Source: a virus
Lineage: Duplodnaviria; Caudoviricetes
DNA length: 47,097 bases
Direction: 5' to 3' (one strand)
Virus record (IMG/VR): IMGVR_UViG_3300020016_000012
Span: 1 to 47,097 of that record
Shown here: in pieces, positions 5,110-23,882 of the stretch
Layout: every line of letters starts with the position of its first letter
Numbering within the stretch: position 1 is the stretch's first letter
Position numbers and translations under genes: made by a program
The notes under the pieces: generated by a model
Told to the model about the DNA's origin: nothing
Databases searched by the model: none
The model's input: only the letters and a program-made list of their open reading frames with translations

Positions 5110-5263
5110 CTATCGGCCGGCACAGATGCATCGTGGTGGACGCGTGACAATACGGACAACTACTCACCGCATCGCGAATCTGAAACGAGCGGCCATCCGG
5201 TAACGTGATGATGTACGAGCCATCGCCGCAATCATGGAAGGGACGGACGGGCGGTTTATCCAT
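5075..5263 (-). CDS. Small Cys/His-rich hypothetical protein
   Basis: ATG at 5263; HDCG...CPYC...HLC; overlaps both neighbours. Confidence 0.45.
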   Translation of the reverse strand: MDKPPVRPFHDCGDGSYIITLPDGRSFQIRDAVSSCPYCHASTTMHLCRPIDVTYGEDPTVN

Positions 5264-6017
5264 GCTTGCAGTCCGCCACACGCTGCAACCAACCCCCCGG
5301 GCACATGGTCAGAAGCCATCGCTCGGCCAACACGTCCTGACTGAACTCGCAGGGATGTTTGGCGACATAGTCTTCAATGCCGCCGCGCGCGCCGCGGTCA
5401 CCTTCAGGACCTGGCCACGAGATGTTCGTGTCCTCGACGACGAGCCAGTCGCCGACGCCGACGAGTGGCGCGTAGAGCTCGAGCTCCCTGCGCACATGGT
5501 CTGCGCTATGGTCGGCATCCAAAGAAATCAGCGTCTTGGTACCAGCTAATCCGAGCTCATCTATATCGTCGACAATGGCATTTTTCACTGCAGCATCAGT
5601 TGAGTCACCAGCAAGGAAGGTAATCTTCGGATGACTCTCAACGCGGCGGTGATCCTCAAAGTCCACACTGTAGACGTGCCCATCAATGCCCAGCATGTCC
5701 ATCAACATCGCGAACCAGAGCGCCGAGCCGCCGGCATACGTCCCAGTCTCAATCACCACACGCGGCTTATGAGAGCTCATCAATTCCTGGTACATCCACA
5801 AATCGTTGGGACACTTCATCATCCCCACCCCGAGGAAGTGGAGGTAGTGCCACGTATGCGGCGCGTTGTACCAGACGTCGTGGTATTGCTGCAGGAGTTC
5901 GGCGTGGTCTGCGCGGGTCTTGTGGACGCGCCGCGCCATCTCGGCATCGGTACAACCAGCATCTGTCTCGACAATCGTGAGCGGCTTCACACCTGGTACG
6001 ATAGCCGGGGCACTCAC
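5256..6017 (-). CDS. CmcI/cephalosporin hydroxylase-family (rhamnosyl O-methyltransferase-like) protein
   Basis: FLGVGMMKCPNDLWMYQELM, KPRVVIETGTYAGGSALWFA, LDADHSADHV..ELELYAPLV, LVVEDT; GTG start at 6017. Confidence 0.9.
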   Translation of the reverse strand: MSAPAIVPGVKPLTIVETDAGCTDAEMARRVHKTRADHAELLQQYHDVWYNAPHTWHYLHFLGVGMMKCPNDLWMYQELMSSHKPRVVIETGTYAGGSALWFAMLMDMLGIDGHVYSVDFEDHRRVESHPKITFLAGDSTDAAVKNAIVDDIDELGLAGTKTLISLDADHSADHVRRELELYAPLVGVGDWLVVEDTNISWPGPEGDRGARGGIEDYVAKHPCEFSQDVLAERWLLTMCPGGWLQRVADCKHG

Positions 6018-6538
6018 TTGCCGTGTCCATTCATAGGCTGCTTGGCCAACATCACGTTGTAGCTGATACTCCCCTGCGTGCCTGGCACCCGCGCCATCTG
6101 CAACGGCCACCACGGCTTCGGCGTCGGCCGTCCCAAATGCTTATGCAGTTCGTACATCGGCGTGCGTGGATCCAACCACGCAAACGAGGCTTCCAGCACA
6201 CGCGTCTTATGCTGTGGATCCGTCAGCCACCCTTGCGACTCGTCGCCACCATACGGCCCACTCACGTAACACACCCCACCCGGTTGCGTCACCCGCCAGA
6301 GCTCATCCCACCACGCGAAGAACTGCGCCGGTTCGACATATTCGAGGACGTGTGTCACCACAGCCGTATTGACACAGGCATCGGGTAACGGGAACGGCAA
6401 GAAACATGGGTGATGCGGCACGTCACCGGTTGGCGAGAGCACCACACTACGCGGTTGCGGCGTGCCACCGAGGCTGATGTCGAGCAGGAGGCCTTTTTTC
6501 TTTTCGACAAGTGTCTTGATCTTCGGCGACAGCTTCAC
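6014..6538 (-). CDS. Short class I SAM-dependent methyltransferase-like protein
   Basis: LDISLGG, PFPLPDACV, HVLEYV, ELWRVTQPGG, DPQHK (DPTH-like). Confidence 0.75.
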   Translation of the reverse strand: MKLSPKIKTLVEKKKGLLLDISLGGTPQPRSVVLSPTGDVPHHPCFLPFPLPDACVNTAVVTHVLEYVEPAQFFAWWDELWRVTQPGGVCYVSGPYGGDESQGWLTDPQHKTRVLEASFAWLDPRTPMYELHKHLGRPTPKPWWPLQMARVPGTQGSISYNVMLAKQPMNGHGK

Positions 6539-6819
6539 GCCTGGACCTCTTCAACCAGACGCATGGCCGGCGCGTCAGCTTGGCAACTCCAGTATTTCCC
6601 GACAATGACGGCGTGTTCGTAGCAGAACGTGCAATGACACCGAGCACAAGTTACGTCCCAGCAACCAGACATCACCTTCCCGCACCCTAGATGCTGGCAG
6701 ACCGCATCGCCGCCCCAAACCGGAATGCGGCTTCCGTCCGGATTCACATGGACACAACGAGACGTCTGATCATCGGGATCGAGTCTAGTAATCCGCCCTT
6801 GTGCGTCGCGCTCGGTCAC
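6535..6819 (-). CDS. Cys-rich zinc-finger-like hypothetical protein
   Basis: CQHLGC, CARC..FCYEH; coupled to both neighbours. Confidence 0.55.
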   Translation of the reverse strand: MTERDAQGRITRLDPDDQTSRCVHVNPDGSRIPVWGGDAVCQHLGCGKVMSGCWDVTCARCHCTFCYEHAVIVGKYWSCQADAPAMRLVEEVQA

Positions 6820-7064
6820 GCTTGCGTCTTCTTTCCGTCCGCCATATCCGCGTAGTGCGTCAACTGTTTCGCCACCGCTCGCGCATCATCCGGACTGAAG
6901 ATCAAACACGGCGCCGCCACCGAGAACTGCAACAACACTTTCTGTTCGTCGGCGTTGTAGCCGAACACGATCTGGCAGGCTTCGCCGTCCTGGCCAAGCC
7001 GCGCCGGCGCTTTCAACGTGCGCTCGACAGGGCTGAGTTTACGATTCGCTTGGGAGCGGGCCAT
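6816..7064 (-). CDS. Hypothetical protein
   Basis: 82 aa ORF in operon orientation, overlapping neighbours. Confidence 0.55.
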   Translation of the reverse strand: MARSQANRKLSPVERTLKAPARLGQDGEACQIVFGYNADEQKVLLQFSVAAPCLIFSPDDARAVAKQLTHYADMADGKKTQA

Positions 7065-7821
7065 GAAGTGCCTTGTACTGGTCGAGTTCGCTTAGCAACT
7101 GTTCCGCTTTCTTCCTTCCGATGAACACGCGATTCCTCATGTTCTCGTCTCGCGTGATCCAGCGCATATTGCCAGGTTCGTAATTTCCGTTATTGTCGAT
7201 GCGATCCAGTTGCAGTCCTGGCTCCGGCCGTCGTCCAACGCTCTTAATGAATGCTTCAAACGATGCCCGCCATTCGTCGCAGACCTTGATCCCGCGCCCA
7301 CCGTAATGCACGTAGCCAGGGTTGTTGGGATTCGTGCAACGTTGCACGATGGCTGCCCAAATCTTGTACTCAGGCCACCGCACACCGCCATGCTTTAGTG
7401 CCCGAATAGCCATCGTTTCCTGTTGATAGCATCCACAGGATCGCGTTGCATGACTCGTCAATGCCGCCCGCTGAACGATCGTCATCGCCCCGCATTCGCA
7501 TCGACACTCCCAGTAGCCGAACCACTTCCGCCCAATCTTCTTGGACGGCGCCTTCGCGACGACGGTCAACCGTCCAAACGTGCGACCGACCAGATCGATC
7601 TGCCGTGCCGCATGAACGGCCGCAAGATTCTCCCGTTGGAGACACCCACACGATTTCGTCCGACCTTCACGTAACGTCGCGAGTCGCACGCCTACGCTAT
7701 TTCCGCAATCACATCGGCAGGCAACCCACCGATGCTTTGTACGGTCACCTTTCGGCGCATCACCAACGACGACTAACCGCCCAAACCTCTGACTCGTAAC
7801 GTCTCGCTTCGGATATGGCAT
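7039..7821 (-). CDS. Free-standing HNH-type homing endonuclease
   Basis: Two FGRL...CRC(D/E)CG...SCGC repeats, then QRCTNPN..YGGRGIKVC..W and LDRIDNNGNYEPGNMRW. Confidence 0.9.
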   Translation of the reverse strand: MPYPKRDVTSQRFGRLVVVGDAPKGDRTKHRWVACRCDCGNSVGVRLATLREGRTKSCGCLQRENLAAVHAARQIDLVGRTFGRLTVVAKAPSKKIGRKWFGYWECRCECGAMTIVQRAALTSHATRSCGCYQQETMAIRALKHGGVRWPEYKIWAAIVQRCTNPNNPGYVHYGGRGIKVCDEWRASFEAFIKSVGRRPEPGLQLDRIDNNGNYEPGNMRWITRDENMRNRVFIGRKKAEQLLSELDQYKALHGPLPSES

Positions 7822-7838
7822 CCCTCACCTCTACGGCG

Positions 7839-7847
7839 AGTATACCA
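7839..7847 (-). promoter_or_regulatory. Extended -10 promoter for the HNH gene
   Basis: TGGTATACT followed by GAGGTGAGGG and the ATG at 7821. Confidence 0.55.
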
Positions 7848-7866
7848 TACAAGAGCACAGTTCTAC

Positions 7867-8791
7867 CTACGTGCTGAACACCCAGTTATATGTGACATTG
7901 TGGTACTCTAACTGACCCTATAGTCACTTAGGTTGTTTGTTACTGGCACTCGCCAGGGTTGGTCATTTCTGCCAACCTCTCACGGTTCGCGTTCCCGTGA
8001 GCCCGGAACATCGCATCTCCGTTTTGCGGAGCCTCTGGGCTTGTTCTCTCAGCCTGCACAGCGTCGGTCGCTTGCTTGGCCCTTGTTCCCGTTTCAGGAT
8101 TCAAGTCAATCACCAGAGGTTTTTCTGACCCTTACGCTGCTGCCAACAGCGTCGCCATCAGGCCCCCATCGTCGTCAAGGGCCTGGGTCGTCCCCTTCGT
8201 CGAGGACGCAAACGTCGCCAGCGATAGCGCCGTGCCGCTGCCCACCGTGGCGTTGTGGTACTGCGCGATGCAGTTCAGCGTGACGGCGTTAGAGATGGCC
8301 GTCGAGACGTACTGGAAGGACTGGGAAAGGGTCCACGTCGCCGCGAGGGACTGGACACCTGCCGAAACAGTCGCACGCGCGCCGCCGGCCGTAGAACCAG
8401 ACGTGGAGGCTGTGCCCTGCTCACTCGAGTCAATCGCCGACTTCGTGGAGAAGTTGGACGACTGCGCTTCCGTCATGTGGCCGATGCCCCAGAACCGCGC
8501 GAGGCCCAGATCCGACAGGACCGTGGCCGCTGAACTCGCGGTGGATCCCTGCGAGGACTGCAGGCCGACGAACGCACGAATCACCGCGCCGTGGCCGTAC
8601 GTGGTGATGACGTTCTCGTACCAGTCGCCGAGCTGCCGTTCGCCGGACTGGCAATCCACGAGCTCGCCGCGGACAAAGCCACGAATGCGCGAGACGTCCG
8701 CCCGGCGCATCTTTGGGACTTGGTCCTTCTTCAGAACACGATGCACCTTCCCATCATGGGTATGGATCTTGTCACCTGGCTGAAAACTCAT
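7867..8791 (-). CDS. Intron-split fibre-module structural protein (exon 1 8791-8178, exon 2 7900-7867; 215 aa spliced)
   Basis: Joining gives ...STKGTTQAL-NVTYNWVFST*, a plausible terminal strand for ENVIT-type phage fibre proteins; unspliced ORF stops at 8132. Confidence 0.75.
7901..8177 (-). ncRNA. Group I intron with no internal ORF (277 nt)
   Basis: P1 CAGGCCCU/GGGGCCUG with U.G; P2 ACGCUG/CAGCGU; P3 CCUCUGG/CCAGAGG; P7 G(A)GAACA/UGUUCC with intact G-binding pair; P8 CUCCG/CGGAG; P9 CUCACGG/CCGUGAG; GGUUGGCAGAAAUGACCAACC hairpin. Confidence 0.88.
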
Positions 8792-8809
8792 CGGCGTCTC
8801 CTTGGTCGG

Positions 8810-11581
8810 TCACTTCATTGTGATTTCGTCGCACGTCCCGGTCGGGCCACAGAACCGATAGCGCGGCTGCGCCATGGTGCCAATCATCAAACGCTCGATC
8901 CGATTGCCGGTAGTCGTCCCCAGGAATAACACCCAGGTCTCGACCGGCGGCGGTGGGGTCGCGACGCATTGTCCGTTCACGAGGATCATCCCTGGCGGCA
9001 CGCTCGTCTGCACCCCGTCAATATTCGGACAGACATCCACCGGCGGCGAGACGCACACGCCATTGACAAGCACCGCCGGCGGCACACAGACCGGCGGCGT
9101 CGTCGCCCCGACCGTGTAATGAAAGACCATTTCCGAGCCGGCGATCTTGGGAAACGGCGTCGTCGAGGAGACGCGCCACGTTTTGATCTCATGGCGTCCC
9201 GCTGTCGTCTGCGATCCTTTGGCTTGGAACCGACGCAGATCCGGGCGCGCCCCGTTGGCATCCACGAAGAACTCCGGCGCCCCGTCGATACTCACCAGCG
9301 ACACCACACTTGCCCCGGTGGCCGTCCCCGTCAGCACACCCGAGAAATCAATCGTCGCGGCCGCACCAGTGCCGTTCACGAGGATCGCCTGCGTCTGTTC
9401 TGCGGGGTAGGTGACGATGAAGCGTGGCGGCCCGAGCGTCGAGGTCGCTCCCGGCGCCACGAGTCCGATAATGACACCGGGGAGTCGACCCTCGTCAGCC
9501 GTGCGGAGCACCTCGCCGTTGTACGCCTGCCCAAACCGATCCCAGCACTGCCCCATCGTCAGACCGACAGCTGGCGCGTTCCACTGCTGCTGCCCATCCG
9601 AGGACGGCCAACACGCCGCACTTTCACGCTGCGCGGGTTCAAACAGGCGGAAGTCTTTCCCGGTGCCTTGCCAGTTGTTGATGATGTAGCGTGAGCCTTG
9701 CTGGAAGAGCCAATGACTGGCGCCCTGAGCCGGGAACGGCGCGGCACCACCCGGCCAGACCGTGCCGTTGCCGAATACGATGTATTGCGACGGGAAGCCC
9801 GGCAGATCGCGATGCGTGATGTTGGTGTGGACGAGATTGTCCGACATCAGCACGCCGTAGTCGATGTTGACAGCGTTCTGCATCTCCACACCCGTCAAAC
9901 GGACGTAGCCGATCGCGCCGCCATCCCGCACGCCAATGGCACAGCCGACCAGGCGCCCGCCTTCGACCGTCAAGCTCCCGGTATAGGCCGCGCTGGAGTG
10001 AATGCAGAACGATCGCCCACCGACACCGACGAGAATCGGCCGACGAAGATAGGGATCCTGGGGATCGGAGACCGGCGCAAAGACTTGCATCCCTTGGTTG
10101 TAAGAGGCGACGTGATCGTCATTGGGGAACAGCGGCGCCCCCCAGAACTCCAAGCCGAAATGGACGTTACTGAGCGTCCGGTTCTTCGTCATCGAGACGG
10201 GTTTCGCGGTGGCTTGCCGCATCGCGGTATCGAGATCGCCGCCCGGCACACTCGGATAGGATCCTGCCACATGATTGATGTTAAACAGGTTCATCCCGAC
10301 TGAGTTGTTGATCGCGACGTTCCCCTCGATCGTCTGCGTGATACCGTGGAGCCAAAACCCTGTCCCCTCGGTGCCAGGGCTCTTGCCGACGATATTGTTC
10401 AGCGCTTGCCCTGAGCCCGTTTCATTCCCAAAGACGTAGGCCGCAAAGTTCTGGCGGAACGTGTTCCGCACTTCGTAGCCGTCTTCCGTGACGAAACACG
10501 CTGCCGCAAAATCCACACAGATGTTGCGCTCGATCAGGGCATCGTGCGTGCCGTGCAGAGCCAGTGCCCATTTCGGTTTCGTGAGGCCGGGCCCACTCCC
10601 GCGATAAACGTTCCCGATCGATACCGAGCCGAAGCCCTGCGCGTGATGCTTATGCCCACCGCCATAGCGGCCGACTTGCTTCGTCCCGATATGCGTGATG
10701 GTCCCTTGATCCGCCGTCGTGCTGTCGAGGACATCCGCCGGCGTCCGACCTAAGCCGATGAACGCCGAATAGCCTTCGCGCCAGGTCGCGTCGTGACCGA
10801 CGTCTGCCGCGTGCCCGCGCGTGCCGTTCGGATTCTCGGAGCGCAAGATGATGTTGCGGGTCAGGTTCGCGACATAGGGCAAACTGATGATGTTGCCGTC
10901 GGGATCGAACTGCGCGAAGTGATCGAAGTCGAGCGGCTTGGAGAGTGTCACGCGGCGGCCGGAGATACTCTCGACCGTCACCAGCGGTTCACGACGCGGA
11001 CCGCCACCCGCTGGCACGTCCATATCAGGAAACAGGAGCTCATCGCCGACCCGCCAGCCCGTGGGGTCTTCGGACAGCGTGACGGTGCGCTGCGTAGCGC
11101 CGAGACTGTCCGTCAGCGTGGTCCAGGTCAGTTTGGGCGCCCCCCAGACATCGCGACGGCCGAAGTTCAGCAGGCCGTTGCCCCACTGGAATGGATCGAG
11201 TGTCACGTTCAGCGGCACATCGTTGACGATGAATTCCACGCGCCGAGTCGTCGGGATCGGGTCCGCCTGAGTGCCAATGTCGAGCACCCCACCGGGCAAC
11301 ACAAACAGATGCGTGAAGCGCAGGACCGTATCGCGCGTCCGCGACACTTTCAGGGTGCCCGCCACTTCGACACAATCAAACGTCGAATCCGCGGCCGGTT
11401 CGATCGTTTGGCCGACGGGAACCGTCAACACCCGCGGCAGCGTGAGACAGCGCGGCACGAAATCCGGCGAGCCGATTCGGATGACCGTCGGCTCTACCGT
11501 GATCATCATGCCGTGGTTTTGAGCGACGACCGGCGCCGCTAGGAAGGACAGGCAGACAAGGAGCGTGAGTATTTTAGTAAT
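8810..11581 (-). CDS. Secreted G8-domain + beta-helix protein (TMEM2/CEMIP-like architecture), possible glycan hydrolase
   Basis: G8-like VAGTL...VLPGGVLDIGT..DPI, DPFQWGNGLL, WRVGDEL, VANLTRNI, LHGTH, FVTEDGYE; C-terminal DVCPNIDGVQ; in-frame signal peptide from ATT at 11581 (first ATG 11509). Confidence 0.8.
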   Translation of the reverse strand: MTKILTLLVCLSFLAAPVVAQNHGMMITVEPTVIRIGSPDFVPRCLTLPRVLTVPVGQTIEPAADSTFDCVEVAGTLKVSRTRDTVLRFTHLFVLPGGVLDIGTQADPIPTTRRVEFIVNDVPLNVTLDPFQWGNGLLNFGRRDVWGAPKLTWTTLTDSLGATQRTVTLSEDPTGWRVGDELLFPDMDVPAGGGPRREPLVTVESISGRRVTLSKPLDFDHFAQFDPDGNIISLPYVANLTRNIILRSENPNGTRGHAADVGHDATWREGYSAFIGLGRTPADVLDSTTADQGTITHIGTKQVGRYGGGHKHHAQGFGSVSIGNVYRGSGPGLTKPKWALALHGTHDALIERNICVDFAAACFVTEDGYEVRNTFRQNFAAYVFGNETGSGQALNNIVGKSPGTEGTGFWLHGITQTIEGNVAINNSVGMNLFNINHVAGSYPSVPGGDLDTAMRQATAKPVSMTKNRTLSNVHFGLEFWGAPLFPNDDHVASYNQGMQVFAPVSDPQDPYLRRPILVGVGGRSFCIHSSAAYTGSLTVEGGRLVGCAIGVRDGGAIGYVRLTGVEMQNAVNIDYGVLMSDNLVHTNITHRDLPGFPSQYIVFGNGTVWPGGAAPFPAQGASHWLFQQGSRYIINNWQGTGKDFRLFEPAQRESAACWPSSDGQQQWNAPAVGLTMGQCWDRFGQAYNGEVLRTADEGRLPGVIIGLVAPGATSTLGPPRFIVTYPAEQTQAILVNGTGAAATIDFSGVLTGTATGASVVSLVSIDGAPEFFVDANGARPDLRRFQAKGSQTTAGRHEIKTWRVSSTTPFPKIAGSEMVFHYTVGATTPPVCVPPAVLVNGVCVSPPVDVCPNIDGVQTSVPPGMILVNGQCVATPPPPVETWVLFLGTTTGNRIERLMIGTMAQPRYRFCGPTGTCDEITMK

Positions 11582-11617
11582 GGCCTAGAATGCGCCGGAA
11601 TCGACCAGGTGCAACGT

Positions 11618-11803
11618 CTACGCATGCTTATTTTGCAAAATCTCGCGTAGAGCCGCTACGTCTTGGGCTGACACTCGGCACTGACCATTCTCAGCGCGGA
11701 AGGCTTCGAGTTTCTCGGCCTTGATCCAGTTCCGGATGGTTTGCGCAGACACTTGGAGGAATCGAGCAGCCGTACCAACGGTGATGAGACGCTCAGGAGG
11801 CAT
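11618..11803 (-). CDS. Excisionase-like/MerR-type HTH DNA-binding protein
   Basis: LITVGTAARFLQVSAQTIRNWIKAEKLEAFR...GQCRV; ATG at 11803. Confidence 0.85.
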   Translation of the reverse strand: MPPERLITVGTAARFLQVSAQTIRNWIKAEKLEAFRAENGQCRVSAQDVAALREILQNKHA

Positions 11804-11863
11804 TTCGAATGGGCCAGCCGCACCAGTGCAGCAGCCAAGCAAAGAGGAGCGCGATCGGCCACG

Positions 11864-12112
11864 TCACGATTCGGTGTCCTGTTCCGTGATGGCCGTGCCT
11901 TCAGGATCGTGCAGAGGCTCCGGAGGTTGAGCGCCGAGGCTGTCGTATTCAGCACGACGAAAACGGTCGAGTAGTGCGTGGAGATCATCCCAACGGTCTC
12001 TCTTCATCCGAGGCCGTTCTTTGTGCGTCTCTGAACAGGCCAACTCGCCCATAATCACTGTACACACCACGCGAATTTCGTGGGTGCTCAAAGTTAATCG
12101 CGTATCGCTCAT
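11864..12112 (-). CDS. Hypothetical protein
   Basis: 82 aa ORF in operon orientation. Confidence 0.5.
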   Translation of the reverse strand: MSDTRLTLSTHEIRVVCTVIMGELACSETHKERPRMKRDRWDDLHALLDRFRRAEYDSLGAQPPEPLHDPEGTAITEQDTES

Positions 12113-12157
12113 GGCTGCCCTGCTCTCTCGACCACAATGTCAGACAGATAAAGACTT

Positions 12158-12559
12158 CTAGTCGCGCGTGGACGGTTCTACGCTACTCGCGAGGACAGGA
12201 TCTACCGCGCCCTCGGCCTTTGCTGATTTGCTGCGCTCTTTAAGAACGTGCAACGCGTCGTAGGACTTCTGAAGATCAGCGCGACAGGCTCTCAGGGTGG
12301 CAATTTTCGGACGGGTGTTGTCGATTGCGTCGATGGACGATACAACGTGATCAAGCGCTTCACCGAGCACGGCCTGTTGCCCTCGCTGGAATGCCATATC
12401 AAGAAACCGTTCAATATGCTTCACCGACGCTTCTGATGGCGCCGTGAGGTGCAATCCACCAACAGGATGCCCCTGCGACCACGGCTGAAGCTGTTCGCTG
12501 ATGAGCGCCTCGATTCTGAGGAGGTAGAGCGTCCACGCCAGATTTCTAGCCTCGGTCAT
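12158..12559 (-). CDS. Hypothetical protein bracketed by sites B and A
   Basis: 133 aa; GGGAG RBS follows site B; C-terminus reads through site A. Confidence 0.6.
   Translation of the reverse strand: MTEARNLAWTLYLLRIEALISEQLQPWSQGHPVGGLHLTAPSEASVKHIERFLDMAFQRGQQAVLGEALDHVVSSIDAIDNTRPKIATLRACRADLQKSYDALHVLKERSKSAKAEGAVDPVLASSVEPSTRD
12163..12209 (+). repeat. Bipartite site A
   Basis: CGCGCGT-N28-GGATCTACCGCG. Confidence 0.85.
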
Positions 12560-13061
12560 CGGTCACATCTCCCGTTGGTGGCTGCGATAGATCCTGCCCG
12601 TGGCGATTGATTCCATTGTCCACGCGCGTACGAAACTCTTTCTCTTTGTCTGGCGGCGTGGGGGCCAGAACCGGAGGCGCCGGCACATTTAACCGCACCC
12701 AGGCTTTGACGGCTTCGAATGCCTCGCAGACTTGAGCCGGTCGCGTGGGTGGGGCGTGTCGATACGTCTGCATTAGTTCGTAAAACTCTCGCGAGTCCAG
12801 GCTGGGTTGCCACGCGTGCGGATCGCTCACGAGAGAGCCTAGAGCCGCACGAGCACGCACCAGCCAACAATCAGCCTTATGTGGTTCTGGGTCGATGTCC
12901 ATCCCGTTCACGTCGCGGTTACACCACCAGCAGTAATTCATCGTCGTGCTGTTGCCGCCTTGAGTTTCAATTTCTTCTTTTAACAACTCCGCGAGTGGTC
13001 GGGAGACACCCCCAGAGCCGCCAGCAGCTTTCGCTTTCTCTTCAGAAATCTTTTCTGCCAT
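12546..13061 (-). CDS. Mosaic hypothetical protein
   Basis: 171 aa; CWWC...HKADCW and FYELMQTYRHAP segments; C-terminus reads through site B. Confidence 0.6.
   Translation of the reverse strand: MAEKISEEKAKAAGGSGGVSRPLAELLKEEIETQGGNSTTMNYCWWCNRDVNGMDIDPEPHKADCWLVRARAALGSLVSDPHAWQPSLDSREFYELMQTYRHAPPTRPAQVCEAFEAVKAWVRLNVPAPPVLAPTPPDKEKEFRTRVDNGINRHGQDLSQPPTGDVTDDRG
12583..12628 (-). repeat. Bipartite site B
   Basis: CGCGCGT-N27-GGATCTATCGCA on the minus strand. Confidence 0.8.
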
Positions 13062-13073
13062 GTCGTTTCCTGC

Positions 13074-13102
13074 TTGACTAACCTAAACGCTTGGGTTATT
13101 CT
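13074..13102 (+). promoter_or_regulatory. Sigma70-type promoter with palindromic spacer; probably leaderless mRNA
   Basis: TTGACT-17-TATTCT, ATG at 13109; the spacer holds the imperfect palindrome AACCTAA-ACGC-TTGGGTT. Confidence 0.7.
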
Positions 13103-13108
13103 CTCTTC

Positions 13109-13291
13109 ATGGTTAAACAAATCACGGTCAACGGCGCGGCGGCAAAGGTTATCAACACCCTGTCCTGCGGCCCAGGCTCTGAACCCCACACGTTCGAACT
13201 GTCTGGCGGCTCCTACGTCTACCAAATCGCCGATGTGTGGTGGCTTCAAGAGCGCGGCCAGTTCAAGCGAGCGGTCAGGGTGGCCCAATGA
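13109..13291 (+). CDS. Small hypothetical moron protein
   Basis: ATG just after the -10 element; ATGA overlap with the next gene. Confidence 0.6.
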   Translation: MVKQITVNGAAAKVINTLSCGPGSEPHTFELSGGSYVYQIADVWWLQERGQFKRAVRVAQ

Positions 13292-13434
13292 GGGCCGCCA
13301 AGAACCCGCATGCCGTCGCCCTCGGCCGCAAGGGCGGCAGCGCCACGTCTAAAGCGAAGGCCGACGCTTCCCGCACCAATGGCGCCCTCGGTGGCCGTCC
13401 TCCCAAGCCAAAGCCTCACGATTTGTGCTCCTGA
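13288..13434 (+). CDS. Small basic KNPxAVALGRKGG-type protein, likely DNA-binding
   Basis: KNPHAVALGRKGGSATSKAKADASRTNGALGGRP. Confidence 0.75.
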   Translation: MRAAKNPHAVALGRKGGSATSKAKADASRTNGALGGRPPKPKPHDLCS

Positions 13435-13757
13435 GCGGCCACGACCGCCGCCCGCAACCACGATTCAACTTCGGCGTATGTACTTCTAAACACCGCTTCT
13501 CCGGCTGTGAACTTCACCGCCAACCATTGCCCGTCGTGCAGTTTCGTCACCAAATACAGACGCGTGTCCGGTTGGGGAACGCAGGAGGCAGCGCCCTTCT
13601 CCGCATAGTGCCGTCGCAATTCAAGTTCTTCGACTTCCGGACTGAGCGCCGGGAAGTCATAGCCCAGAGCCGCCTTGATCTGATCGAGCGATTTACCTTG
13701 TGGGGGGACGCTGGAGCCGGCCGCCCACACGTCGTCAGCCATCACAAATTCACTCAT
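13416..13757 (-). CDS. Hypothetical protein
   Basis: ATG at 13757 overlapping the upstream stop (ATGA). Confidence 0.5.
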   Translation of the reverse strand: MSEFVMADDVWAAGSSVPPQGKSLDQIKAALGYDFPALSPEVEELELRRHYAEKGAASCVPQPDTRLYLVTKLHDGQWLAVKFTAGEAVFRSTYAEVESWLRAAVVAAQEHKS

Positions 13758-14002
13758 ACGCGCGTCGCACCTTTCTGCCCTATTCCATCGACTGGATCTA
13801 CCGCGTCGAGCGCCGTTGCTGATGCGCGACGTTTCTCGGAAGCCACGGCCACGTCCAACATCGGTAGAAGGTTCGTGCGAATAGAGTCCGCGATCTCGGC
13901 GTTCGTGTGGCCGTCTTTGATGTTCGTTAGCCGATAGCGACAGCCATCCTCGAACCAAATGTGACAATCCCACGCGCCGCGTTTCTTATGGCCTCTTGGC
14001 AT
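13754..14002 (-). CDS. Hypothetical protein bracketed by sites D and C
   Basis: 82 aa; GGGGAG RBS follows site D; C-terminus reads through site C. Confidence 0.6.
   Translation of the reverse strand: MPRGHKKRGAWDCHIWFEDGCRYRLTNIKDGHTNAEIADSIRTNLLPMLDVAVASEKRRASATALDAVDPVDGIGQKGATRV
13759..13805 (+). repeat. Bipartite site C
   Basis: CGCGCGT-N28-GGATCTACCGCG. Confidence 0.85.
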
Positions 14003-14008
14003 CGGTGA

Positions 14009-14317
14009 CTACTCCCCACTGCTGCGACGCGGTAGATCCTGTCCGTCGGCGCCTGCCTTCAGTGGTGCGACGCGCGACTGATCGTCTGGTGTTTCTATCT
14101 GGTGTGGCCCTTCGGGATCGCCGAGGAGGCCCGCGCGTCGTTCGTCGCAATCGAACCAAAGGCACCCCTTGCTGACCCATTCATCTCGTAGCTGTTGGTG
14201 TGTTAGAACCCTGTCGTCATAGCCGAACTCAGTACCACAGCATGCACAAATACTGTGGTCGCGTGGAGGAAACTCCAGTGCGTTATAGCCACAGACTGGG
14301 CAGGTGTGTTCGTTCAT
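14009..14317 (-). CDS. Cys-rich CPxCG...CxCCG protein (CPCC-like)
   Basis: TCPVCGY...ICACCGTEFGYDD...LRDEWV..G..WF; ATG at 14317. Confidence 0.7.
   Translation of the reverse strand: MNEHTCPVCGYNALEFPPRDHSICACCGTEFGYDDRVLTHQQLRDEWVSKGCLWFDCDERRAGLLGDPEGPHQIETPDDQSRVAPLKAGADGQDLPRRSSGE
14028..14076 (-). repeat. Bipartite site D
   Basis: CGCGCGT-N30-GGATCTACCGCG on the minus strand; 17-nt exact inverted match to site A. Confidence 0.85.
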
Positions 14318-14346
14318 GGTTGCTCCTGCGCGGGATCGCCGAGGAG
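14113..14346. repeat. 16-bp direct repeat CGGGATCGCCGAGGAG (14113-14128 / 14331-14346)
   Basis: Exact match; both copies encode LLGDP and flank the Cys-rich domain. Confidence 0.8.
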
Positions 14347-14703
14347 ACGGGCCAGCTTGGCGGCGCACTCCGTCAACGTCTCCGCAACCGCCGCGTGTTC
14401 TGATTGACACTCCAAATGGCACTCAACCGAATACTGACCTGCTACCAGCGCTGAATCCTGAAACTCGTCGCGCAGGGCGCGGATCGCCGCGTGCGTGGCC
14501 GCGAGTTGCGTCGACAGTTTCTCGGCGCGTGCGTGTTGTGCTTCGCATTCCTGTTTCAGCCACAGCAGTGCGCCGGCTGCGAACGGTGCGTCGAGTGGGG
14601 CGCGATAGACTTCATCGGCCGCAGGCTTCATCGTTCGCCGTAAAGGCGGATCCCAATCGAGCTCATTCAGCTCGTTGTTAATATCCTTTAGTGGATCGCT
14701 CAC
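14314..14703 (-). CDS. Coiled-coil hypothetical protein
   Basis: 129 aa; GGAGG RBS. Confidence 0.55.
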   Translation of the reverse strand: MSDPLKDINNELNELDWDPPLRRTMKPAADEVYRAPLDAPFAAGALLWLKQECEAQHARAEKLSTQLAATHAAIRALRDEFQDSALVAGQYSVECHLECQSEHAAVAETLTECAAKLARLLGDPAQEQP

Positions 14704-14763
14704 GCCTGCCTCCGTGTCCCAAAACAGAACGAAGAATCTCTATCGCGCAGGGACAGCACGGGT

Positions 14764-14967
14764 TTACCCATCGTCTCCAGTCCTCCGCGACGACCGCCCA
14801 ACCCACTCCGACAGCAATTGAAGAACCAGAGCCCGAAGAGAAATCCCTTCACGTTTTGCTTTCGCACTCACGGCGTCGTAGAGCGTGGGCGGAATGCGAT
14901 CGACTTCGATCCGCACCCGCCGTTCCGTCTTCGGTGTGAACTCGCGGGAGTAACCTCGTTTGGCCAT
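14764..14967 (-). CDS. Ribbon-helix-helix DNA-binding protein
   Basis: RIEVDRIPPTLYDAVSAKAKREGISLRALVLQLLSEWV; ATG at 14967. Confidence 0.8.
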   Translation of the reverse strand: MAKRGYSREFTPKTERRVRIEVDRIPPTLYDAVSAKAKREGISLRALVLQLLSEWVGRSSRRTGDDG

Positions 14968-14990
14968 CCCGCGAGTGTATCCCTGCTCCA

Positions 14991-15251
14991 TTAAGGCACC
15001 TGCACCGTTCCGCAAAACGCACAGAACCATCCGAGCTTGTGTTTGCCCGCGTGGATGTGTGTATCCTTCACGAACTGATTAGAGAACGACATCTTGTGCG
15101 TGAGGCACACCCATTGGCCCTGATTGTGTTCGCACTTCGCGCTAACGATAAACTCCATCTGCGGATCAATCTTGCCGATGTCGCCCGCGTAGTTGCTCTT
15201 CGCGATCACGGCCCGTTCACCCTCTGACGCACGCTCTAGAACCTGTGCCAT
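14991..15251 (-). CDS. Small Cys/His protein co-transcribed with the RHH gene
   Basis: GGAGG RBS; WVCLTH...HIH...HKLGWFCAFCG. Confidence 0.65.
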   Translation of the reverse strand: MAQVLERASEGERAVIAKSNYAGDIGKIDPQMEFIVSAKCEHNQGQWVCLTHKMSFSNQFVKDTHIHAGKHKLGWFCAFCGTVQVP

Positions 15252-15268
15252 CTCTCACCTCCAGAGAT

Positions 15269-15315
15269 AGCCTACAACAATACCGGTATTCATGTCAAGT
15301 TTACCGGTATTCATG
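15269..15315 (-). promoter_or_regulatory. Sigma70-type promoter with duplicated operator
   Basis: TTGACA-18-TAGGCT; palindrome AATACCGGTATT at 15279-15290; 14-mer CATGAATACCGGTA present twice. Confidence 0.75.
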
Positions 15316-15514
15316 CGCGTGTCCTCTTGCGTGGCATCGGCTCTGGCTTGGCCGCATTCCGCCGTAGATGATCGTCAAAGTCCAGCAAGGAGAGGGCTTG
15401 CGCGCGTAACGTCTCCGGCACCAGGCCGGCCGCAAGATCACGCAGATCCTCGACGCGCAAGGCTTCCACGCGGTAGTCAAACCCGTCCTGGTTATCACCG
15501 GCGGCGACTCTCAT
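15311..15514 (-). CDS. Hypothetical protein (starts MRVAAGDN)
   Basis: 67 aa; ATGA overlap with the upstream gene. Confidence 0.55.
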   Translation of the reverse strand: MRVAAGDNQDGFDYRVEALRVEDLRDLAAGLVPETLRAQALSLLDFDDHLRRNAAKPEPMPRKRTRA

Positions 15515-15762
15515 GTGAACTTGTCTCCCTGAAATGGAGATTCAATGCACGGCGCTTGCGGCTGTAATGCTTGTCCGAAATTCATTTGCCGAAGCCAGAG
15601 ACGCCCGAACCACAGCACGAGGAAACGTTCCCGCCACGTCAGCGCCCAACAACTGATCGTTTCGCGCTCATCGGAGTAGGCTGGCAATGGGAGATAAGGC
15701 TTCTGGTCCTTCGCCCACACCATCGTCTGCTCTGGAAATTCGATCGGCGTCACGATTGCCAC
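15511..15762 (-). CDS. Conserved-looking small phage protein
   Basis: PIEFPEQT..AKDQKPYLPLPA...ISCWALTWRER...GRLWL...QP. Confidence 0.7.
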   Translation of the reverse strand: MAIVTPIEFPEQTMVWAKDQKPYLPLPAYSDERETISCWALTWRERFLVLWFGRLWLRQMNFGQALQPQAPCIESPFQGDKFT

Positions 15763-15974
15763 CTCCTACGGTCGTTGTCGCGCTGGCGCTCTGACGGTGA
15801 GCGTTCGTCTAAGTCGCCCATGCGGTCGTAGGGCTGTGTGGCGTCACCGTCCGTGTTGCGCGTGCCTCGGCACTTCGGATAATTCGCACAGCCCCAGAAC
15901 CGCTGCCCCGTAGTTTTATTCGCCCGACTCTTCATCGGCCCGTCGCACTGTGGGCATTTGACGTTCTCGATCAT
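15750..15974 (-). CDS. Stand-alone topoisomerase-type C4 zinc-finger protein
   Basis: CPQCDGPM..R....GQRFWGCANYPKCRGT. Confidence 0.85.
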   Translation of the reverse strand: MIENVKCPQCDGPMKSRANKTTGQRFWGCANYPKCRGTRNTDGDATQPYDRMGDLDERSPSERQRDNDRRRWQS

Positions 15975-16000
15975 CGTTCACTTATCTCCCGTTGCGGATG

Positions 16001-16048
16001 TCGCGTGGATCCTGTCGTGGTAGCCATCCGAACGACTGTAAACGCGTA
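16001..16048 (-). repeat. Bipartite site E (degenerate)
   Basis: TACGCGT-N29-GGATCCACGCGA, followed by CAACGGGAGAT as after site B. Confidence 0.65.
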
Positions 16049-16434
16049 AAAGTCTTCGTCCTCGTTGGGTTATCACCGGCGGCGACTCTCATCGCATCCC
16101 AATCGCCGCGAGCCATCGACGGACCACGCGGAGTGCCCGAATCGCGCAGCAATCCACACACCGACAGGGCCGAGTTCGGCTGTGTCGATAAGGAACCTCT
16201 GGAAACATTCGTGGACAGAACCGTGTCTGATAGGTCAATGTGATCATGAACTCGCTCCAATCTCTTTCAAAGTGGGCGGGTTCTGCCGAATGTCTCGACA
16301 GCGTCGCCCGCGGTTCGTTTCCCGATAACACTCCGTGTGCGCCAACTGCGGCCGATCGTCACCCATTGGCCGGCGGCAGATGTAGCACAGGCCGCGGGCC
16401 CGGATCTGCGCGTGCCACTCCGGGTTCTTACACT

Positions 16435-16695
16435 TCATCGACTCGCTCCGATCTCTTTCAACACCTGTTCGGGCGTCCGCCAGATCGGAAAGTCGCCCTG
16501 GTTCTTGGTTTCCGTCCCCCCCCTCGACTTCACCTCGCCGGCGTAGTAGAAGCCCCGCCAGCGCACGAGGAGATCGGGATTGCCGTGGCCCCCGCCGATC
16601 AACCAGAACTCTGCGCCTACGGCCTTCAGGGCGTCTGTAATGGGCTTCTCCGCGGTGTCCCGCTTCCCACCGCCGGCGCGACGTCGGTAACTCAC
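16435..16695 (-). CDS. Small PD-(D/E)XK nuclease (VRR-NUC/resolvase-like)
   Basis: KRD..E..I..AL..VG, GNPDLLV, GEVK. Confidence 0.8.
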   Translation of the reverse strand: MSYRRRAGGGKRDTAEKPITDALKAVGAEFWLIGGGHGNPDLLVRWRGFYYAGEVKSRGGTETKNQGDFPIWRTPEQVLKEIGASR

Positions 16696-16917
16696 CGCGG
16701 CACCAGCCGGTACTTCGCTTTCGGCGCCCCCGATCCCTTGCCTGGCCCACGCGGATACAGCGCCTCGATCTCCACAGAGCCCTGAGCCTTCAACGCCGAG
16801 AGCGCCACCGCAATCGTCCCGTAGGCATAACTCGTGAGCCCGCAGAGTTCGTCCACCGTGAACAGGTGATCCGGCGCATTAGTGAACTGCTCGAGGACCC
16901 GTTCCACGGCGCTCATG
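16692..16917 (-). CDS. Small winged-helix-like protein
   Basis: FTVDELCGLT..AYGTIAVALSALKAQGSV...YRL (ORF track 16692-16916). Confidence 0.6.
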
Positions 16918-17149
16918 CGGGCTCCTTTGGTGAGTAGCGATCCACGTCAGCCGAGGCAAGACCATCAAGGAATTCGTCAGCCGAGGCGAGACACTCAAGT
17001 GAACAGAACTTGATCAAGCCACCCACTCTCGTGAAATTCGCCCCACCAAGCGGCAACGCCAGCCGACACCACCCGCACCGGTTCGCGTGATCCCGCCTGC
17101 CGAGCTCCGCATTCCGTTCTCGCCGCGCCGCCAGATCCTTCCGCTTCAT
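16913..17149 (-). CDS. Zinc-finger-like hypothetical protein
   Basis: CGWC...FCSLEC; ATG at 17149. Confidence 0.5.
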   Translation of the reverse strand: MKRKDLAARRERNAELGRRDHANRCGWCRLALPLGGANFTRVGGLIKFCSLECLASADEFLDGLASADVDRYSPKEPA

Positions 17150-17511
17150 GACGCCCGCGCTTCCCGCAGGATCTTCTCCGTGCAGTCCTTGAACCGCTGA
17201 CACGTCGGCGTGTGCGGACACCGCATGCCGCCGTCAGACCGTGCCGACCGCGGCTTCTCTAGCGCCTCATCCAGCCAGCGACCTTGGTTCAGCCACGTCG
17301 CCGGGTGGCAGAAGTCCGCATACGCCGGCTTGTTCAAGAGGTAGCGCGCGATCCCTGACAGCAATTCCGCTGCGCTCGCCGTCTTCCGCGCTTTCACGTA
17401 TGCCTTTTCTGCAGCGAGTTTCCCGACGCGGTTCGGATACGCGCGCCAGAAGGCTTCGAAGTCCGCCTTCAATTGACCGTCTCCGGCTTTGACCACATTG
17501 GCCGATTCCAA
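17146..17511 (-). CDS. Stand-alone C-terminal domain of a phage replication initiator
   Basis: FEAFWRAYPNRVGKLAAEKAY...HPATWLNQGRWLDE; start may be TTG at 17472. Confidence 0.8.
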   Translation of the reverse strand: MESANVVKAGDGQLKADFEAFWRAYPNRVGKLAAEKAYVKARKTASAAELLSGIARYLLNKPAYADFCHPATWLNQGRWLDEALEKPRSARSDGGMRCPHTPTCQRFKDCTEKILREARAS

Positions 17512-18065
17512 TCTTCCGGAAGCGACGGCTCAGTCTTTTTGTCCTCTGGCCGCCAATCGGTTTGATCCCAATTACCTTTCCCGTGATTACACGCACTACA
17601 AAGTATCTGTAGATTAGATTCAGTTAGCGCCAATTTTGGGAATAGTCGCCGCGGCTTAATGTGATCAACATTGATCACTGTCACACCATCTTTAGGAGAA
17701 GCACCGCAACATTCACATCGAGCTCCACGCTTCGTGATCACAACCATACGGAGTCGGCGCCATTCCGCAGTCTGAAGAAACGAGTTATCAGCCGCAGTTT
17801 TAAGGACCGACTTGCTAATGTGATGCTTGATGCGTGGCGACAACTTCGGTGGGTCATAGTGCAGCGACGAATGGTGCATCTTTGGCAGTGGAGCTGCGGC
17901 GATCCGAACAGGAAGCGGCCACTTGGCGCCATGTTGATCGGCCCATAGCCCGGCCCAGTGACCACGAGGAATACCTTTTGGCCGTTCCTTCATGTGCTTT
18001 TTAAAGCCAAACTCCGCGCGCAACTTTCGCGGGATATGACTCAGAACTGTCTTCCATTGCTTCAT
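17469..18065 (-). CDS. HNH endonuclease
   Basis: EWRRLR, CECCG, VDHIKPR..FPKLAL..SNLQILCSACNHGK. Confidence 0.9.
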   Translation of the reverse strand: MKQWKTVLSHIPRKLRAEFGFKKHMKERPKGIPRGHWAGLWADQHGAKWPLPVRIAAAPLPKMHHSSLHYDPPKLSPRIKHHISKSVLKTAADNSFLQTAEWRRLRMVVITKRGARCECCGASPKDGVTVINVDHIKPRRLFPKLALTESNLQILCSACNHGKGNWDQTDWRPEDKKTEPSLPEDWNRPMWSKPETVN

Positions 18066-18361
18066 AAACACATCTTCCAGATAAACCCCGGACTCTCCGG
18101 CTCCCCCCTCCGATTCCCAGTCCCTTGCCGGCAATTCGTTTCCGAGCCCTTTCGAAGTACCAAGGCCAAGTCCAAATTGATCAACAACGCGTGTATGAAA
18201 ACGAGACGCGCCGTAGTGCCGTATAAGGTCTGTTCAACCGCTTGGTGATCGCCGCCGCACCAACGAGGCCACGCCTAGCCGTTCGTCCCGGCCCCACCGC
18301 CCACCTCAGCAACCTCGCAAGTGTCCAGGTATTTATCACCGCCCCTGACAGGCGCTTAGTT

Positions 18362-18601
18362 CTACGCTCTCAATCGAAACGCTTCGCCGTTGAATCTGTA
18401 TTCCGAGATCACAAATGAACTGCCGTCTTCACGCTTAACGTGCCGCTGCCGATTCTCAATGTCCATGCCGAGCTGCGTCCGGCAATCACTCACCCGGCTG
18501 CGCCACGCGTATCGGCCTCCAATCGTTTCGAGCTCGCGCCCGTCGATCCAGCGGCCGGCGTTGGTTCCAAAGTAGGCCGCGACTCGTTTGGTAAAGGTCA
18601 T
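18362..18601 (-). CDS. Small winged-helix-like phage protein
   Basis: WIDGRELETIGGRYAWRSRVSDCR..LGMDIEN...SEYRF. Confidence 0.65.
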   Translation of the reverse strand: MTFTKRVAAYFGTNAGRWIDGRELETIGGRYAWRSRVSDCRTQLGMDIENRQRHVKREDGSSFVISEYRFNGEAFRLRA

Positions 18602-18853
18602 CGTCGCCGCTGCTCCAGACGCCAGCCCTCAGACACGTAGACGTCATGGCGGGTGTATTTCCAGAAGTAGTAAAGGCGACGGAGGTACTTCACTTCTTGC
18701 TCGGCTTCGCCGTGATCGTGATGGCACCGTTCGCCATCAGGAAATCGCGCAAGTCTTGAGCCTCTGCCACTGTTAGATATATCGTCTCGGCATCTTTTTT
18801 GATCTTGATCAACGTCTCGGTAATCAATTCGTCCTCCACGACTACAATCGTCA

Positions 18854-19231
18854 TCAGCACGCTAATGCCAATTTGTCACCACACCGCACGAACAGCGGCC
18901 CGTCTGCACCGTCCGTCGTGATCGGATCCATATCGATCTCGCCAGCGTCGTACGCGCGATGGTGGCCTGTGCAGCCCATAAAGCTACCCGCGGTCGTGTG
19001 CCGTTCTTCCGGCGCCATCCCTCGCGTTCTGGCTCGCTTTTTGTCGCCCATGTGGCACCATTCGCTAACACCCGAACACGGCCCGCACCCGGTAAGCCGA
19101 CAAAACCCGTCACGTTTGACACACTGCGCCCGAACGATCCGTTTCTGCTTGTCTTCAGCCCGACGCTTCCGTCTTTTGATCCGCTTGCGCGTCTCTGGCT
19201 TCGGACATTGAACGCCAAATCCAATTGCCAT
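18854..19231 (-). CDS. HNH-like Cys/His nuclease-fold protein
   Basis: RDGFC...C.G..EWCH...CTGHHRAYD; ATG at 19231. Confidence 0.55.
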   Translation of the reverse strand: MAIGFGVQCPKPETRKRIKRRKRRAEDKQKRIVRAQCVKRDGFCRLTGCGPCSGVSEWCHMGDKKRARTRGMAPEERHTTAGSFMGCTGHHRAYDAGEIDMDPITTDGADGPLFVRCGDKLALAC

Positions 19232-19355
19232 CACGCAGCCTTGAACTTCCGGTGCGCGCTGAACAATCGCTCGAGACGCAACTTCTCCGTGAGCGTCTGT
19301 GCTTCGCGATACTTCTTCGATCGCTTCAACCATTTGCGATTCGCTTTACGCCCCA

Positions 19356-22903: not shown

Positions 22904-23392
22904 ATGGCTAAGTTTTATAGTCTCACGATTCTCGCCGTCCTCGTCTCAGCCATCCCACTATACGCCGCCGATCCCGATCGCCGACTCGCGACCGTGCGTA
23001 AAGCCTTCGTCGTGCCCGTGGACGAACTCGGCGACGATAAAGGCGTCGCGACGTGTCTCGCCAGCCATCTGAAAGACTTGACGCCGATCGAAGCCGTCGC
23101 CTCCAAAGAGGAAGCCGATGTGATCTTCCGCGTCAGTTCCCATCTCCCAAGCACCACGACAAAAGTGTTCGCCGGCCCAATGGGTGGTTCCCCCAGCGCG
23201 CACCTGTTCGCCGAACTCCCAGACGGCACGAAGCTCTGGGACGATGGCGCAAAGTACCGACGGTCGATGATGCGACAGGGCGCCTTCGGATCGAGTTCTG
23301 GCGATACAGGAAAAGGGATTGAGTGCGGGCTCGCCGACGAACTCGCCAACACTTTGCGCGACGCGATGCGGAAAGCGCGAGACAAGAAGTGA
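22904..23392 (+). CDS. Secreted/periplasmic protein, possibly expressed in lysogens
   Basis: Signal peptide MAKFYSLTILAVLVSAIPLYA; lies behind the repressor. Confidence 0.7.
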   Translation: MAKFYSLTILAVLVSAIPLYAADPDRRLATVRKAFVVPVDELGDDKGVATCLASHLKDLTPIEAVASKEEADVIFRVSSHLPSTTTKVFAGPMGGSPSAHLFAELPDGTKLWDDGAKYRRSMMRQGAFGSSSGDTGKGIECGLADELANTLRDAMRKARDKK

Positions 23393-23766
23393 TGGAGTCT
23401 CCAGACTTCAAGCAGCCCGCCATCGGTATTGACCAGTACGACGGCAAGTCGGTCACTGTTCTCGTCTTGAAGCCGACCGGCCAACAATATACAGCGCAAA
23501 CGCACGGCGTTGGATGCCGGCATCCGGTCGCAGAGGGACAGCCATTCGTCATCTCCGTCGAGACTCCTGTCCCGCACGTCGGGTGCTGGGGCTACGTGTC
23601 AGAAGCGGACGTCCTCGTACTGCGCGAGTGGCTCAGCGCCACCTTGCCGTTCGTTGAGCTCGACGAGGATAGACTCAGGGCCGGTGGCGATACCTTCGGA
23701 GAAGCATGGCTCCCGGTTCGAATCGGCGGGCTCGAGGCGATCCTCGTGACAGAAAACTGCGACTAG
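23392..23766 (+). CDS. Hypothetical protein (starts MESPDF)
   Basis: TGATG overlap; QTHGVGCRHP..EG, EAWLPV, LVTENCD. Confidence 0.65.
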   Translation: MESPDFKQPAIGIDQYDGKSVTVLVLKPTGQQYTAQTHGVGCRHPVAEGQPFVISVETPVPHVGCWGYVSEADVLVLREWLSATLPFVELDEDRLRAGGDTFGEAWLPVRIGGLEAILVTENCD

Positions 23767-23853: not shown

Positions 23854-23882
23854 CTCCAGCCCCACTCCCGGAGAATTCGCTG

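Follow-up and report, generated by a model that had tools for sequence, protein, structure and literature searches.

The stretch of DNA considered here, referred to below as the window, is the entire 47,097-bp virus record IMGVR_UViG_3300020016_000012 of a phage belonging to the Caudoviricetes. It encodes an HK97-type portal as well as capsid and tail genes, and its sequence is present in soil metagenome runs. The best GenBank matches of the capsid protein are about 43% identical, and no DNA match to the window was found among GenBank phages. The present analysis concerns a family of short, two-armed DNA sites that bracket small genes as inverted pairs. In the window, these sites are located in a cluster of small accessory genes downstream of the replication genes. 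The initial annotation of this region interpreted the sites as ends of mobile one-gene cassettes. All genes were called with a hexamer-based caller, whose calls are approximate for short open reading frames (ORFs).

Four sites had been assigned to positions 12163-12209 (site A, + strand, 47 bp), 12583-12628 (site B, - strand, 46 bp), 13759-13805 (site C, + strand, 47 bp) and 14028-14076 (site D, - strand, 49 bp), and all four were recovered exactly there. Sites B and A bracket ORF 12158-12559 (- strand), which we call cargo gene 1 and which encodes a protein of 133 aa. Likewise, D and C bracket ORF 13754-14002 (- strand), which is cargo gene 2 with 82 aa. Neither product belongs to a recognised family, and a search with the cargo 1 protein retrieved no homolog other than itself. 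Sites A and C lie at the 3' ends of cargo genes 1 and 2, respectively, and site B is followed by a ribosome-binding site and the start of cargo gene 1. The similar ribosome-binding sites and starts that had been noticed behind B, D and E, as well as the protein tails (AVDP.. and GQDL) that unrelated genes have in common, are indeed present in the sequence. Chance does not account for this arrangement, since the pattern CGCGCGT-N25-32-GGATC matches the window 4 times as compared to an expectation of 0.26, and none of 100 shuffles reached 4 matches. No Rfam family was matched in the window. Immediately outside site A, at 12145-12162 (+ strand), the profile logos place a purine tract and a T-rich linker that belong to the consensus of the family, and immediately outside D lies a gene-end motif with LLGDP codons (14113-14128, - strand), of which a second copy is found at 14331-14346.

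The fifth site of the initial annotation, E (16001-16048), scores below the threshold of the main profile. It is divergent, and is better placed at 16046-15993 (- strand, 54 bp). Site E resembles a second subfamily that is found as a matched pair in locus L321 with a relaxed model. It lies about 20 bp within a perfect 25-bp direct repeat (upstream copy 16068-16092, downstream copy 15490-15514 at the gene start MRVAAGDN, both on the - strand), which encloses two genes at 15511-15974 (- strand), namely 15750-15974, encoding a zinc ribbon, and 15511-15753. The count of five copies was too low, because a sixth site, G (14744-14789, + strand, 46 bp), had been missed. G overlaps the 3' end of an Arc-like repressor gene (14764-14991, - strand) and scores 27.2 with the relaxed model, for which shuffled sequences yield about 0.5 matches above 23 per Mb. 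The relaxed model also points to a weak candidate, F (15360-15406, - strand, 47 bp), with a score of 10 that is not significant alone. F is possibly a decayed partner of G.

Closer examination of other sequences revealed that the sites in the window belong to a large family. A 19-base exact pattern is matched by 85 IMG/VR loci, and 69 of the 87 distinct matches have a length of 46-47 bp. A metagenome scan yielded 128 loci, which come from 34 of 64 parts scanned. By profile, 288 distinct sites were obtained in total from the fetched viral and metagenome contigs, and 316 with the relaxed model. The proposal had been open to the objection that the motif might be no commoner than expected by chance. 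This objection does not hold, as the sites occur at many phage loci and shuffled sequences give almost none: at a score of 17, the main profile had 81 matches in the real sequences of 26 records and 1 match in the shuffled ones. Among GTDB genomes there was a single match, and its contig is packed with phage genes; a further 150 genomes of the same phylum gave 0 matches. The provirus stretch that was inspected (20 of 25 kb, plus L050) contained phage genes only. The carriers span different virion types, including P22-like and HK97-like phages. Of 32 records that were picked by other homology, 2 contain the strict pattern, and of the 23 of these that were fetched, some of them partly, 4 have sites under the relaxed model; the sites are therefore patchily distributed and are not part of a core. 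In the literature we found no description of such an element, within open-access coverage that leaves most subscription papers outside. We conclude that the family is real, phage-borne, widespread and apparently undescribed.

The anatomy of the sites is fixed. From the outside inwards, it comprises a purine tract with an A at every third base (at about -18, -15, -12 and -9), a T-rich linker, the outer arm CGCG(CGTRGWC), a variable middle, the inner arm (GGATC)TACCGCR, and a weak inner consensus that continues for about 20 nt past the inner arm. The site core measures 43-54 bp, with about 35-39 variable bases between CGCG and TACCGCR and at least 23-24 bp between the arms, and the inner arm is its most invariant part. 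The original description as a bipartite site of about 47 bp was thus right with respect to the two arms, but the true site is longer because the consensus extends beyond both of them. Sites that are sense and sites that are antisense to transcription have an identical consensus, and the anatomy is therefore kept at the DNA level. Subfamilies can be distinguished, two examples being phage G450, where nine sites form a type of their own, and L321, where a matched pair represents another. The nine sites of G450 lie in L431 at 3362-18847, and this phage additionally encodes a tyrosine integrase and, at L431:8342-9265, an IS1595-family transposase. The pair in L321 (G472, about 950-1390) belongs to a 53-bp subfamily and surrounds a short ORF, and its outer flank is the same as that of site D in the window. 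A conserved inverted repeat by the repressor region of related phages (L186-L188 and L190-L193, at 2501-2550) is unrelated to the site family.

Most neighbouring sites face each other. Among 112 neighbouring pairs within 1.5 kb, 104 are oppositely oriented (77 convergent and 27 divergent), and 8 have the same direction. The stretch enclosed by a pair has a median length of 387 bp. Inverted pairs around varied single genes, as anticipated in the initial annotation, were found in many phages, and some units enclose two to three genes rather than one. The outer arm was thought to be shared between partners. This holds in the window, but is only modest family-wide (5.04 versus 4.75 of 7 positions, with identical arms in 20 of 89 pairs). 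For upstream-type sites, a gene start is located at +64 to +74 in 25 of 55 cases, some 20 nt past the inner arm; for downstream-type sites, the stop is located at +9 or -5 in 21 of 68 cases. The downstream site is entered in the A-V-D-P frame by 42 of 46 callable cargoes (31 of 77 were not callable). In genes in general, this frame is used by 56% of CGCG and 68% of CGCGGT occurrences, so that codon usage accounts for part, but not all, of the bias (p = 2e-4). With respect to the strand of the surrounding operon, the cargo of the 77 pairs was in the same orientation in 53 cases, in the opposite orientation in none, and unclear in 24. Inversion at the sites, which had been named initially as something to look for, is therefore not supported, and none of 7 listed joints in metagenome contigs, which show presence only, changes strand.

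Most cargo genes have no family assignment. Those cargo and adjacent genes that could be named encode mainly DNA methylases, and further Acb2/Tad1, SLOG, zinc-ribbon and helix-turn-helix proteins. The Acb2/Tad1 anti-defence sponge is identified as cargo by a Pfam match in L062 (3608-3826), to which L251:1974-2207 is 92% identical, and L023:3200-3412 is a candidate for a further one by its appearance. In L007 (3542-4570), an entire site pair, bordered by a 13-bp duplication, lies in frame within one ORF of 342 codons. In L050 (4001-4426), a lone upstream-type site is followed by a gene that is opposite to its flanks, between the genes for the head protease and the capsid.

A comparison of related phages showed that the contents between the same sites can differ. 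L012 and L028 have both sites and the flanks in common, but contain 144 and 685 bp, respectively, of different DNA between them. L208 and L260 also have the same sites and different contents, and on the left side their identity stops at the last base of the inner arm. A third swap was seen between L270 and L063, in which one site has decayed, and several further alignments between relatives end at +45/46. Conversely, homologous cargoes sit between unrelated sites and flanks, and they also occur without sites. For instance, a homolog of cargo gene 1 that is 39% identical is present in L049, where neither of its ends has a detected site, and its stop lies 2 codons past the point where cargo gene 1 enters site A. 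The content swaps between relatives support the mobility inferred initially. Sibling contigs of the window were found in four metagenome runs from two studies; they are single contigs of low depth, and the comparison excludes 25 loose ends and 64 pieces, and with them variants adjoining A, B and C. In three of the runs, the outer flank of D is conserved and then followed by a site of the L321 type instead of D, and in one run this flank leads directly to a ribosome-binding site and start with no site. In one study, a relative joins 12169 to 13699.

Many pairs are flanked by direct repeats. Using a repeat score of at least 12 as the criterion, and after dropping 7 of the 77 pairs that lie too near a contig end, duplications were found around 12 of 38 pairs as compared to 0.16 expected from shuffled partners, and, in an independent metagenome set, around 8 of 32 pairs as compared to 0.32 expected. 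The 20 of 70 site pairs contrast with 10 of 494 ordinary small genes within 5 kb, which amounts to an enrichment of about 14-fold. The repeats are mostly 12-22 bp long (one alignment extends to 32 bp) and lie 14-53 bp from the outer CGCG on the left and 6-40 bp on the right, mostly at gene starts or ends. Lone sites showed duplications with a score of at least 13 in 7 of 52 cases, versus 0.5 expected, and the perfect 25-bp repeat around E is a further such duplication. These flanking direct repeats around pairs suggest insertion with a long and imprecise target duplication. At 2-8 bp, a fixed short duplication was not convincing at any offset; the top match of 2 bp was at asymmetric offsets and became weaker once the pairs had been oriented. 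Elsewhere in the window, a direct repeat of 31 bp, 20 bp of it exact, is located at two gene starts (23390-23420 and 23881-23911) about 460 bp apart with no detectable site between them; this is a duplication-flanked insertion without ends of the family.

Taken together, we consider it on balance probable that the sites are the inward-facing ends of non-autonomous mobile gene cassettes, which carry one and sometimes two to three accessory genes and would depend on a protein provided in trans for their movement. The family with its fixed anatomy, the inward pairing, the register of starts and stops, the differing contents between the same sites and the long direct repeats that flank about three pairs in ten are established. 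The initial view of mobile one-gene cassette ends is thus upheld by the swaps, the inverted pairs, the duplications and the patchy distribution, but not with respect to an excised junction or clean empty site, an attC-like fold, or the restriction to a single gene. Mobility is likely in the light of the comparative evidence, and its mechanism is unproven; binding, cutting, an intermediate and an enzyme are inferred. The scheme that we would propose starts with one protein recognising both arms, at a fixed spacing, on double-stranded DNA. The whole unit, loosely ended in the purine tracts, would then be copied or set free, and a repair-type reaction would join it into a gene junction with duplication of about 12-25 bp of target. 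In a separate step, cargo might be captured or replaced through crossovers at the inner arms that use short CGCG homology.

Several observations weigh against this reading. Duplications with a score of at least 12 are lacking around 50 of the 70 pairs, including both pairs in the window (scores of 6 and 7), and about 3 of the 20 positive pairs are related to another positive one. The gap of 6-53 bp between site and repeat varies and has no conserved terminal bases, which is unlike a transposase end. Many sites are unpaired, and no right-hand site was found between the two genes behind E and the 25-bp repeat. Microhomology between cassette tails and target flanks showed no clear excess (3.55 versus 3.31, and 3.35 versus 3.0). 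Empty-site alleles in related phages had been predicted, and among the fetched loci none of the duplication-flanked units had a clean empty allele; the nearest approach is the LLGDP gene-end motif, which is free of sites in L321 and L322, is twice followed by sites in L232, and adjoins D in the window. Moreover, no transposase, serine recombinase or reverse transcriptase was present among 142 representatives of shared protein clusters and the scanned cargo. Finally, the best associate of the sites, a family of small HNH-type proteins, is found by profile (E <= 1e-6) in 22 of 27 site-bearing records, with the ORF at 18854-19333 of the window among its members, and also in 4 of 11 site-free records.

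The search for an enzyme gave little else. No protein cluster is common to all of the 26 records that were compared first, and among 72 cargo or adjacent genes of other loci and the 142 cluster representatives, a set that leaves singleton and host proteins outside the scan, there was no cognate autonomous element with the same ends. One site-bearing genome contains an IS1595 transposase, and tyrosine integrases are encoded by 9 of the 27 records with sites and by 2 of the 11 without. The window has no tyrosine integrase, and its scanned ORFs include no recombinase or transposase, which agrees with the initial annotation. A co-occurring recombinase, which would have been expected, is not supported across the site-bearing records. 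By clustering, the HNH-type family was present in 19 of 27 site-bearing versus 2 of 11 site-free records; this association (p = 0.005) is the best of many clusters, and it weakened with the more sensitive profile. The predicted model of the HNH-fold protein has a pLDDT of 81, its viral matches are weak and of HNH/NinG type only, and no PDB structure matched at E <= 0.001. By these counts, the protein is neither necessary nor sufficient, and its role as the enzyme is a guess; the copy in the window (18854-19333, - strand) is a weak candidate helper. Annealing-type proteins, namely ERF, YqaJ and AAA_24, were also found in site-bearing phages. A guess, to which we give a low probability, is that the phage's own recombination module, consisting of the small HNH-fold nuclease and annealing proteins, performs the reaction. 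A bolder version of the cassette reading, which we regard as possible at clearly less than even chances, is that the sites belong to a dedicated and undescribed system for gene capture and delivery in phages. A sequence-specific protein, with subfamilies corresponding to those of the sites, would cap ordinary phage genes at the inner arms with a pair of inverted adaptors and insert the unit at gene junctions with long, imprecise duplications, by a chemistry outside the DDE, tyrosine, serine and HUH classes.

Different explanations of the sites have to be weighed against movement as cassettes. One of them, which we judge to be rather unlikely, is that they are regulatory boundary elements, similar to the promoter/stem-loop elements (PeSLs) discussed below, with the site serving as a promoter or operator and the cargo being shuffled by ordinary short-homology recombination at conserved stretches and gene-end linkers. 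Starts about 20 nt behind the inner arm, the presence of ERF, YqaJ and AAA_24, a swap boundary that is not at one base in every comparison, and gene-end motifs recurring as site-free direct repeats (three copies in L321) would all fit such a function. However, sites at gene 3' ends are antisense and outnumber the sense ones (68 versus 44), the logos have no conserved -10-like box at a sigma-70 spacing, the sites are absent from most relatives, and duplications are about 14-fold commoner around site pairs than around neighbouring genes. An arrangement that is inside out with respect to the preferred one is distinctly unlikely: the inner arm would be the true tip, an enzyme would join both tips to a donor gene, the slot would be the phage's own, and the outer duplications would stem from later module exchange. 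In favour of it, the inner arm varies least of all parts, identity between relatives stops there, and cargo gene 1 enters site A at the gene end of its homolog. The common frame of 42 of 46 cargoes also points in this direction, though with a CGCGGT background of 68% much of it can be explained by joining at a pre-existing CGCG. Against it, no abutted or symmetric inner-arm junction of the family was seen among 8 matches, the consensus runs about 20 nt inside the supposed tip, and the arrangement alone leaves the outer duplications unexplained.

The alternating orientation, the single-gene modules, the replacement in one slot and the lack of a phage enzyme common to all carriers also call to mind pdif modules, in which case a host site-specific recombinase would act on alternating asymmetric sites and modules would be swapped between co-infecting phages. 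We find this very doubtful, since the spacer of at least 23-24 bp varies in length and is unmatched between partners, inversions are lacking, and crossover within the sites would not yield outer duplications. No chromosomal copy was found in the GTDB genomes, with their 1 phage-like match, or in the 150 further genomes of the phylum; a diverged site in the host is possible. Largely refuted, and retaining a slight probability at most, is the idea that the pairs are attL/attR sites of a serine integrase or fold as single strands like attC. A loose complementarity, with one bulged base, does exist between the two arms, and the fold-back proposed for site A is indeed the predicted minimum structure, but it is no better than that of shuffles (z 0.72), as was the case for 10 of 10 strands. 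At two stem positions, the 316 sites show 46 and 73 deviations, with 0 and 1 compensatory changes; folding, mutual information and pair counts were all negative for an attC-like fold. Hybrid sites were sought with both symmetric patterns; neither outer-outer nor inner-inner hybrids occurred in the context of the family, the 39 and 8 matches being chance matches and an unrelated phage hairpin, respectively. There was also no central overlap common to partners, as the one cell of 216 that stood out did not hold up. The proposal that the conservation merely reflects a peptide tail in common, or chance, is practically negligible. It is true that cargoes enter the site mostly as A-V-D-P, but these bases are also conserved at sites lying antisense to the frame, the 46- and 47-bp forms shift the frames of the arms, and stops lie within the site, which refutes conservation at the protein level only; chance is excluded by the window shuffles and by the profile counts in real versus shuffled sequences.

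How phages acquire single accessory genes precisely at gene boundaries has been asked for a long time, and the usual answer is illegitimate recombination together with selection. Here, such genes carry a defined DNA signature that can be searched for and is found in phages of different virion types, the duplications provide a footprint, and the process can be tested. If the capture system outlined above exists, it would spread methylase and anti-defence genes between phage lineages. By means of the brackets, candidates for accessory and anti-defence genes can be mined, and, if a new enzyme is responsible, it might serve as a tool for the insertion of single genes.

Three further features of the window lie outside the accessory cluster. 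Positions 2673-2822 (150 bp) are a copy of part of the tailspike gene (3859-4008) with 93% identity and scattered differences. This copy is bracketed by a 42-bp direct repeat (2631-2672 and 2824-2865), by which a gene start is duplicated. The arrangement at 2631-2865 looks like a partial gene duplication, and the site family is not in evidence there. The large terminase subunit is encoded in two ORFs, one for the ATPase (44987-45883) and one for the nuclease (44168-44827), with a short ORF between them; the split at 44168-45883 possibly reflects an intron, an insertion or a frameshift. Lastly, ORF 169-1782 (537 aa) is made of repeats of 21-22 codons and has no match in Pfam or PHROG.

Among known systems, the dif modules of Acinetobacter plasmids, which end in pdif sites (XerC/XerD), resemble the present units in having asymmetric two-part sites that alternate around small accessory modules, in the replacement of contents in one slot, and in an enzyme that is not encoded in the module (PMC13141974). 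There, a spacer of 6 bp must match and inversions result, whereas the spacers described here are at least 23-24 bp long, unmatched and variable, no inversions are seen, long outer duplications are present, and no chromosomal copy was found. Units bordered by MITEs (miniature inverted-repeat transposable elements) and the integron mobilization unit (IMU) have in common with the present units the inverted ends, the lack of an own enzyme, the cargo and a target duplication that fades with age (PMC3575428, PMC10969869). They differ in that our ends lack precision (6-53 bp from repeat to outer arm) and conserved terminal bases, the duplications vary in length, the sites are bipartite, the cargo is replaced inside the ends, and no cognate transposase was found. 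Unusually long target duplications, of 16-28 bp, are also typical of the IS1202 group of insertion sequences, but these have a DDE transposase and short terminal inverted repeats, neither of which is seen here (PMC10132070). The PeSLs of T4-type phages are likewise conserved intergenic elements that border small phage genes that are gained or lost; mini-circles are excised by their mutual recombination, for which a direct orientation is inferred (PMC2839356). The present sites are inverted and show no promoter or hairpin signal, and a mutual crossover cannot excise the cargo. As in integron attC cassettes, there is one promoterless ORF per unit, a stop that often lies in the site, and conserved ends with a variable middle, but RYYYAAC/GTTRRRY cores, a supported hairpin and an integron integrase are lacking, and each unit has two inverted sites (PMC5027507). 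REPINs, which are moved in trans by RAYT proteins, are short sequences in inverted pairs as well (PMC3337134). They are hairpins of host chromosomes with no gene cargo, whereas the present sites are phage-borne, their folding does not surpass that of shuffles, and the scanned proteins included no Y1 transposase. In summary, the layout is closest to that of pdif modules and the footprint is closest to that of MITEs and the IMU, but a defining test failed for each of these as well as for attC, attL/attR, PeSLs and REPINs.

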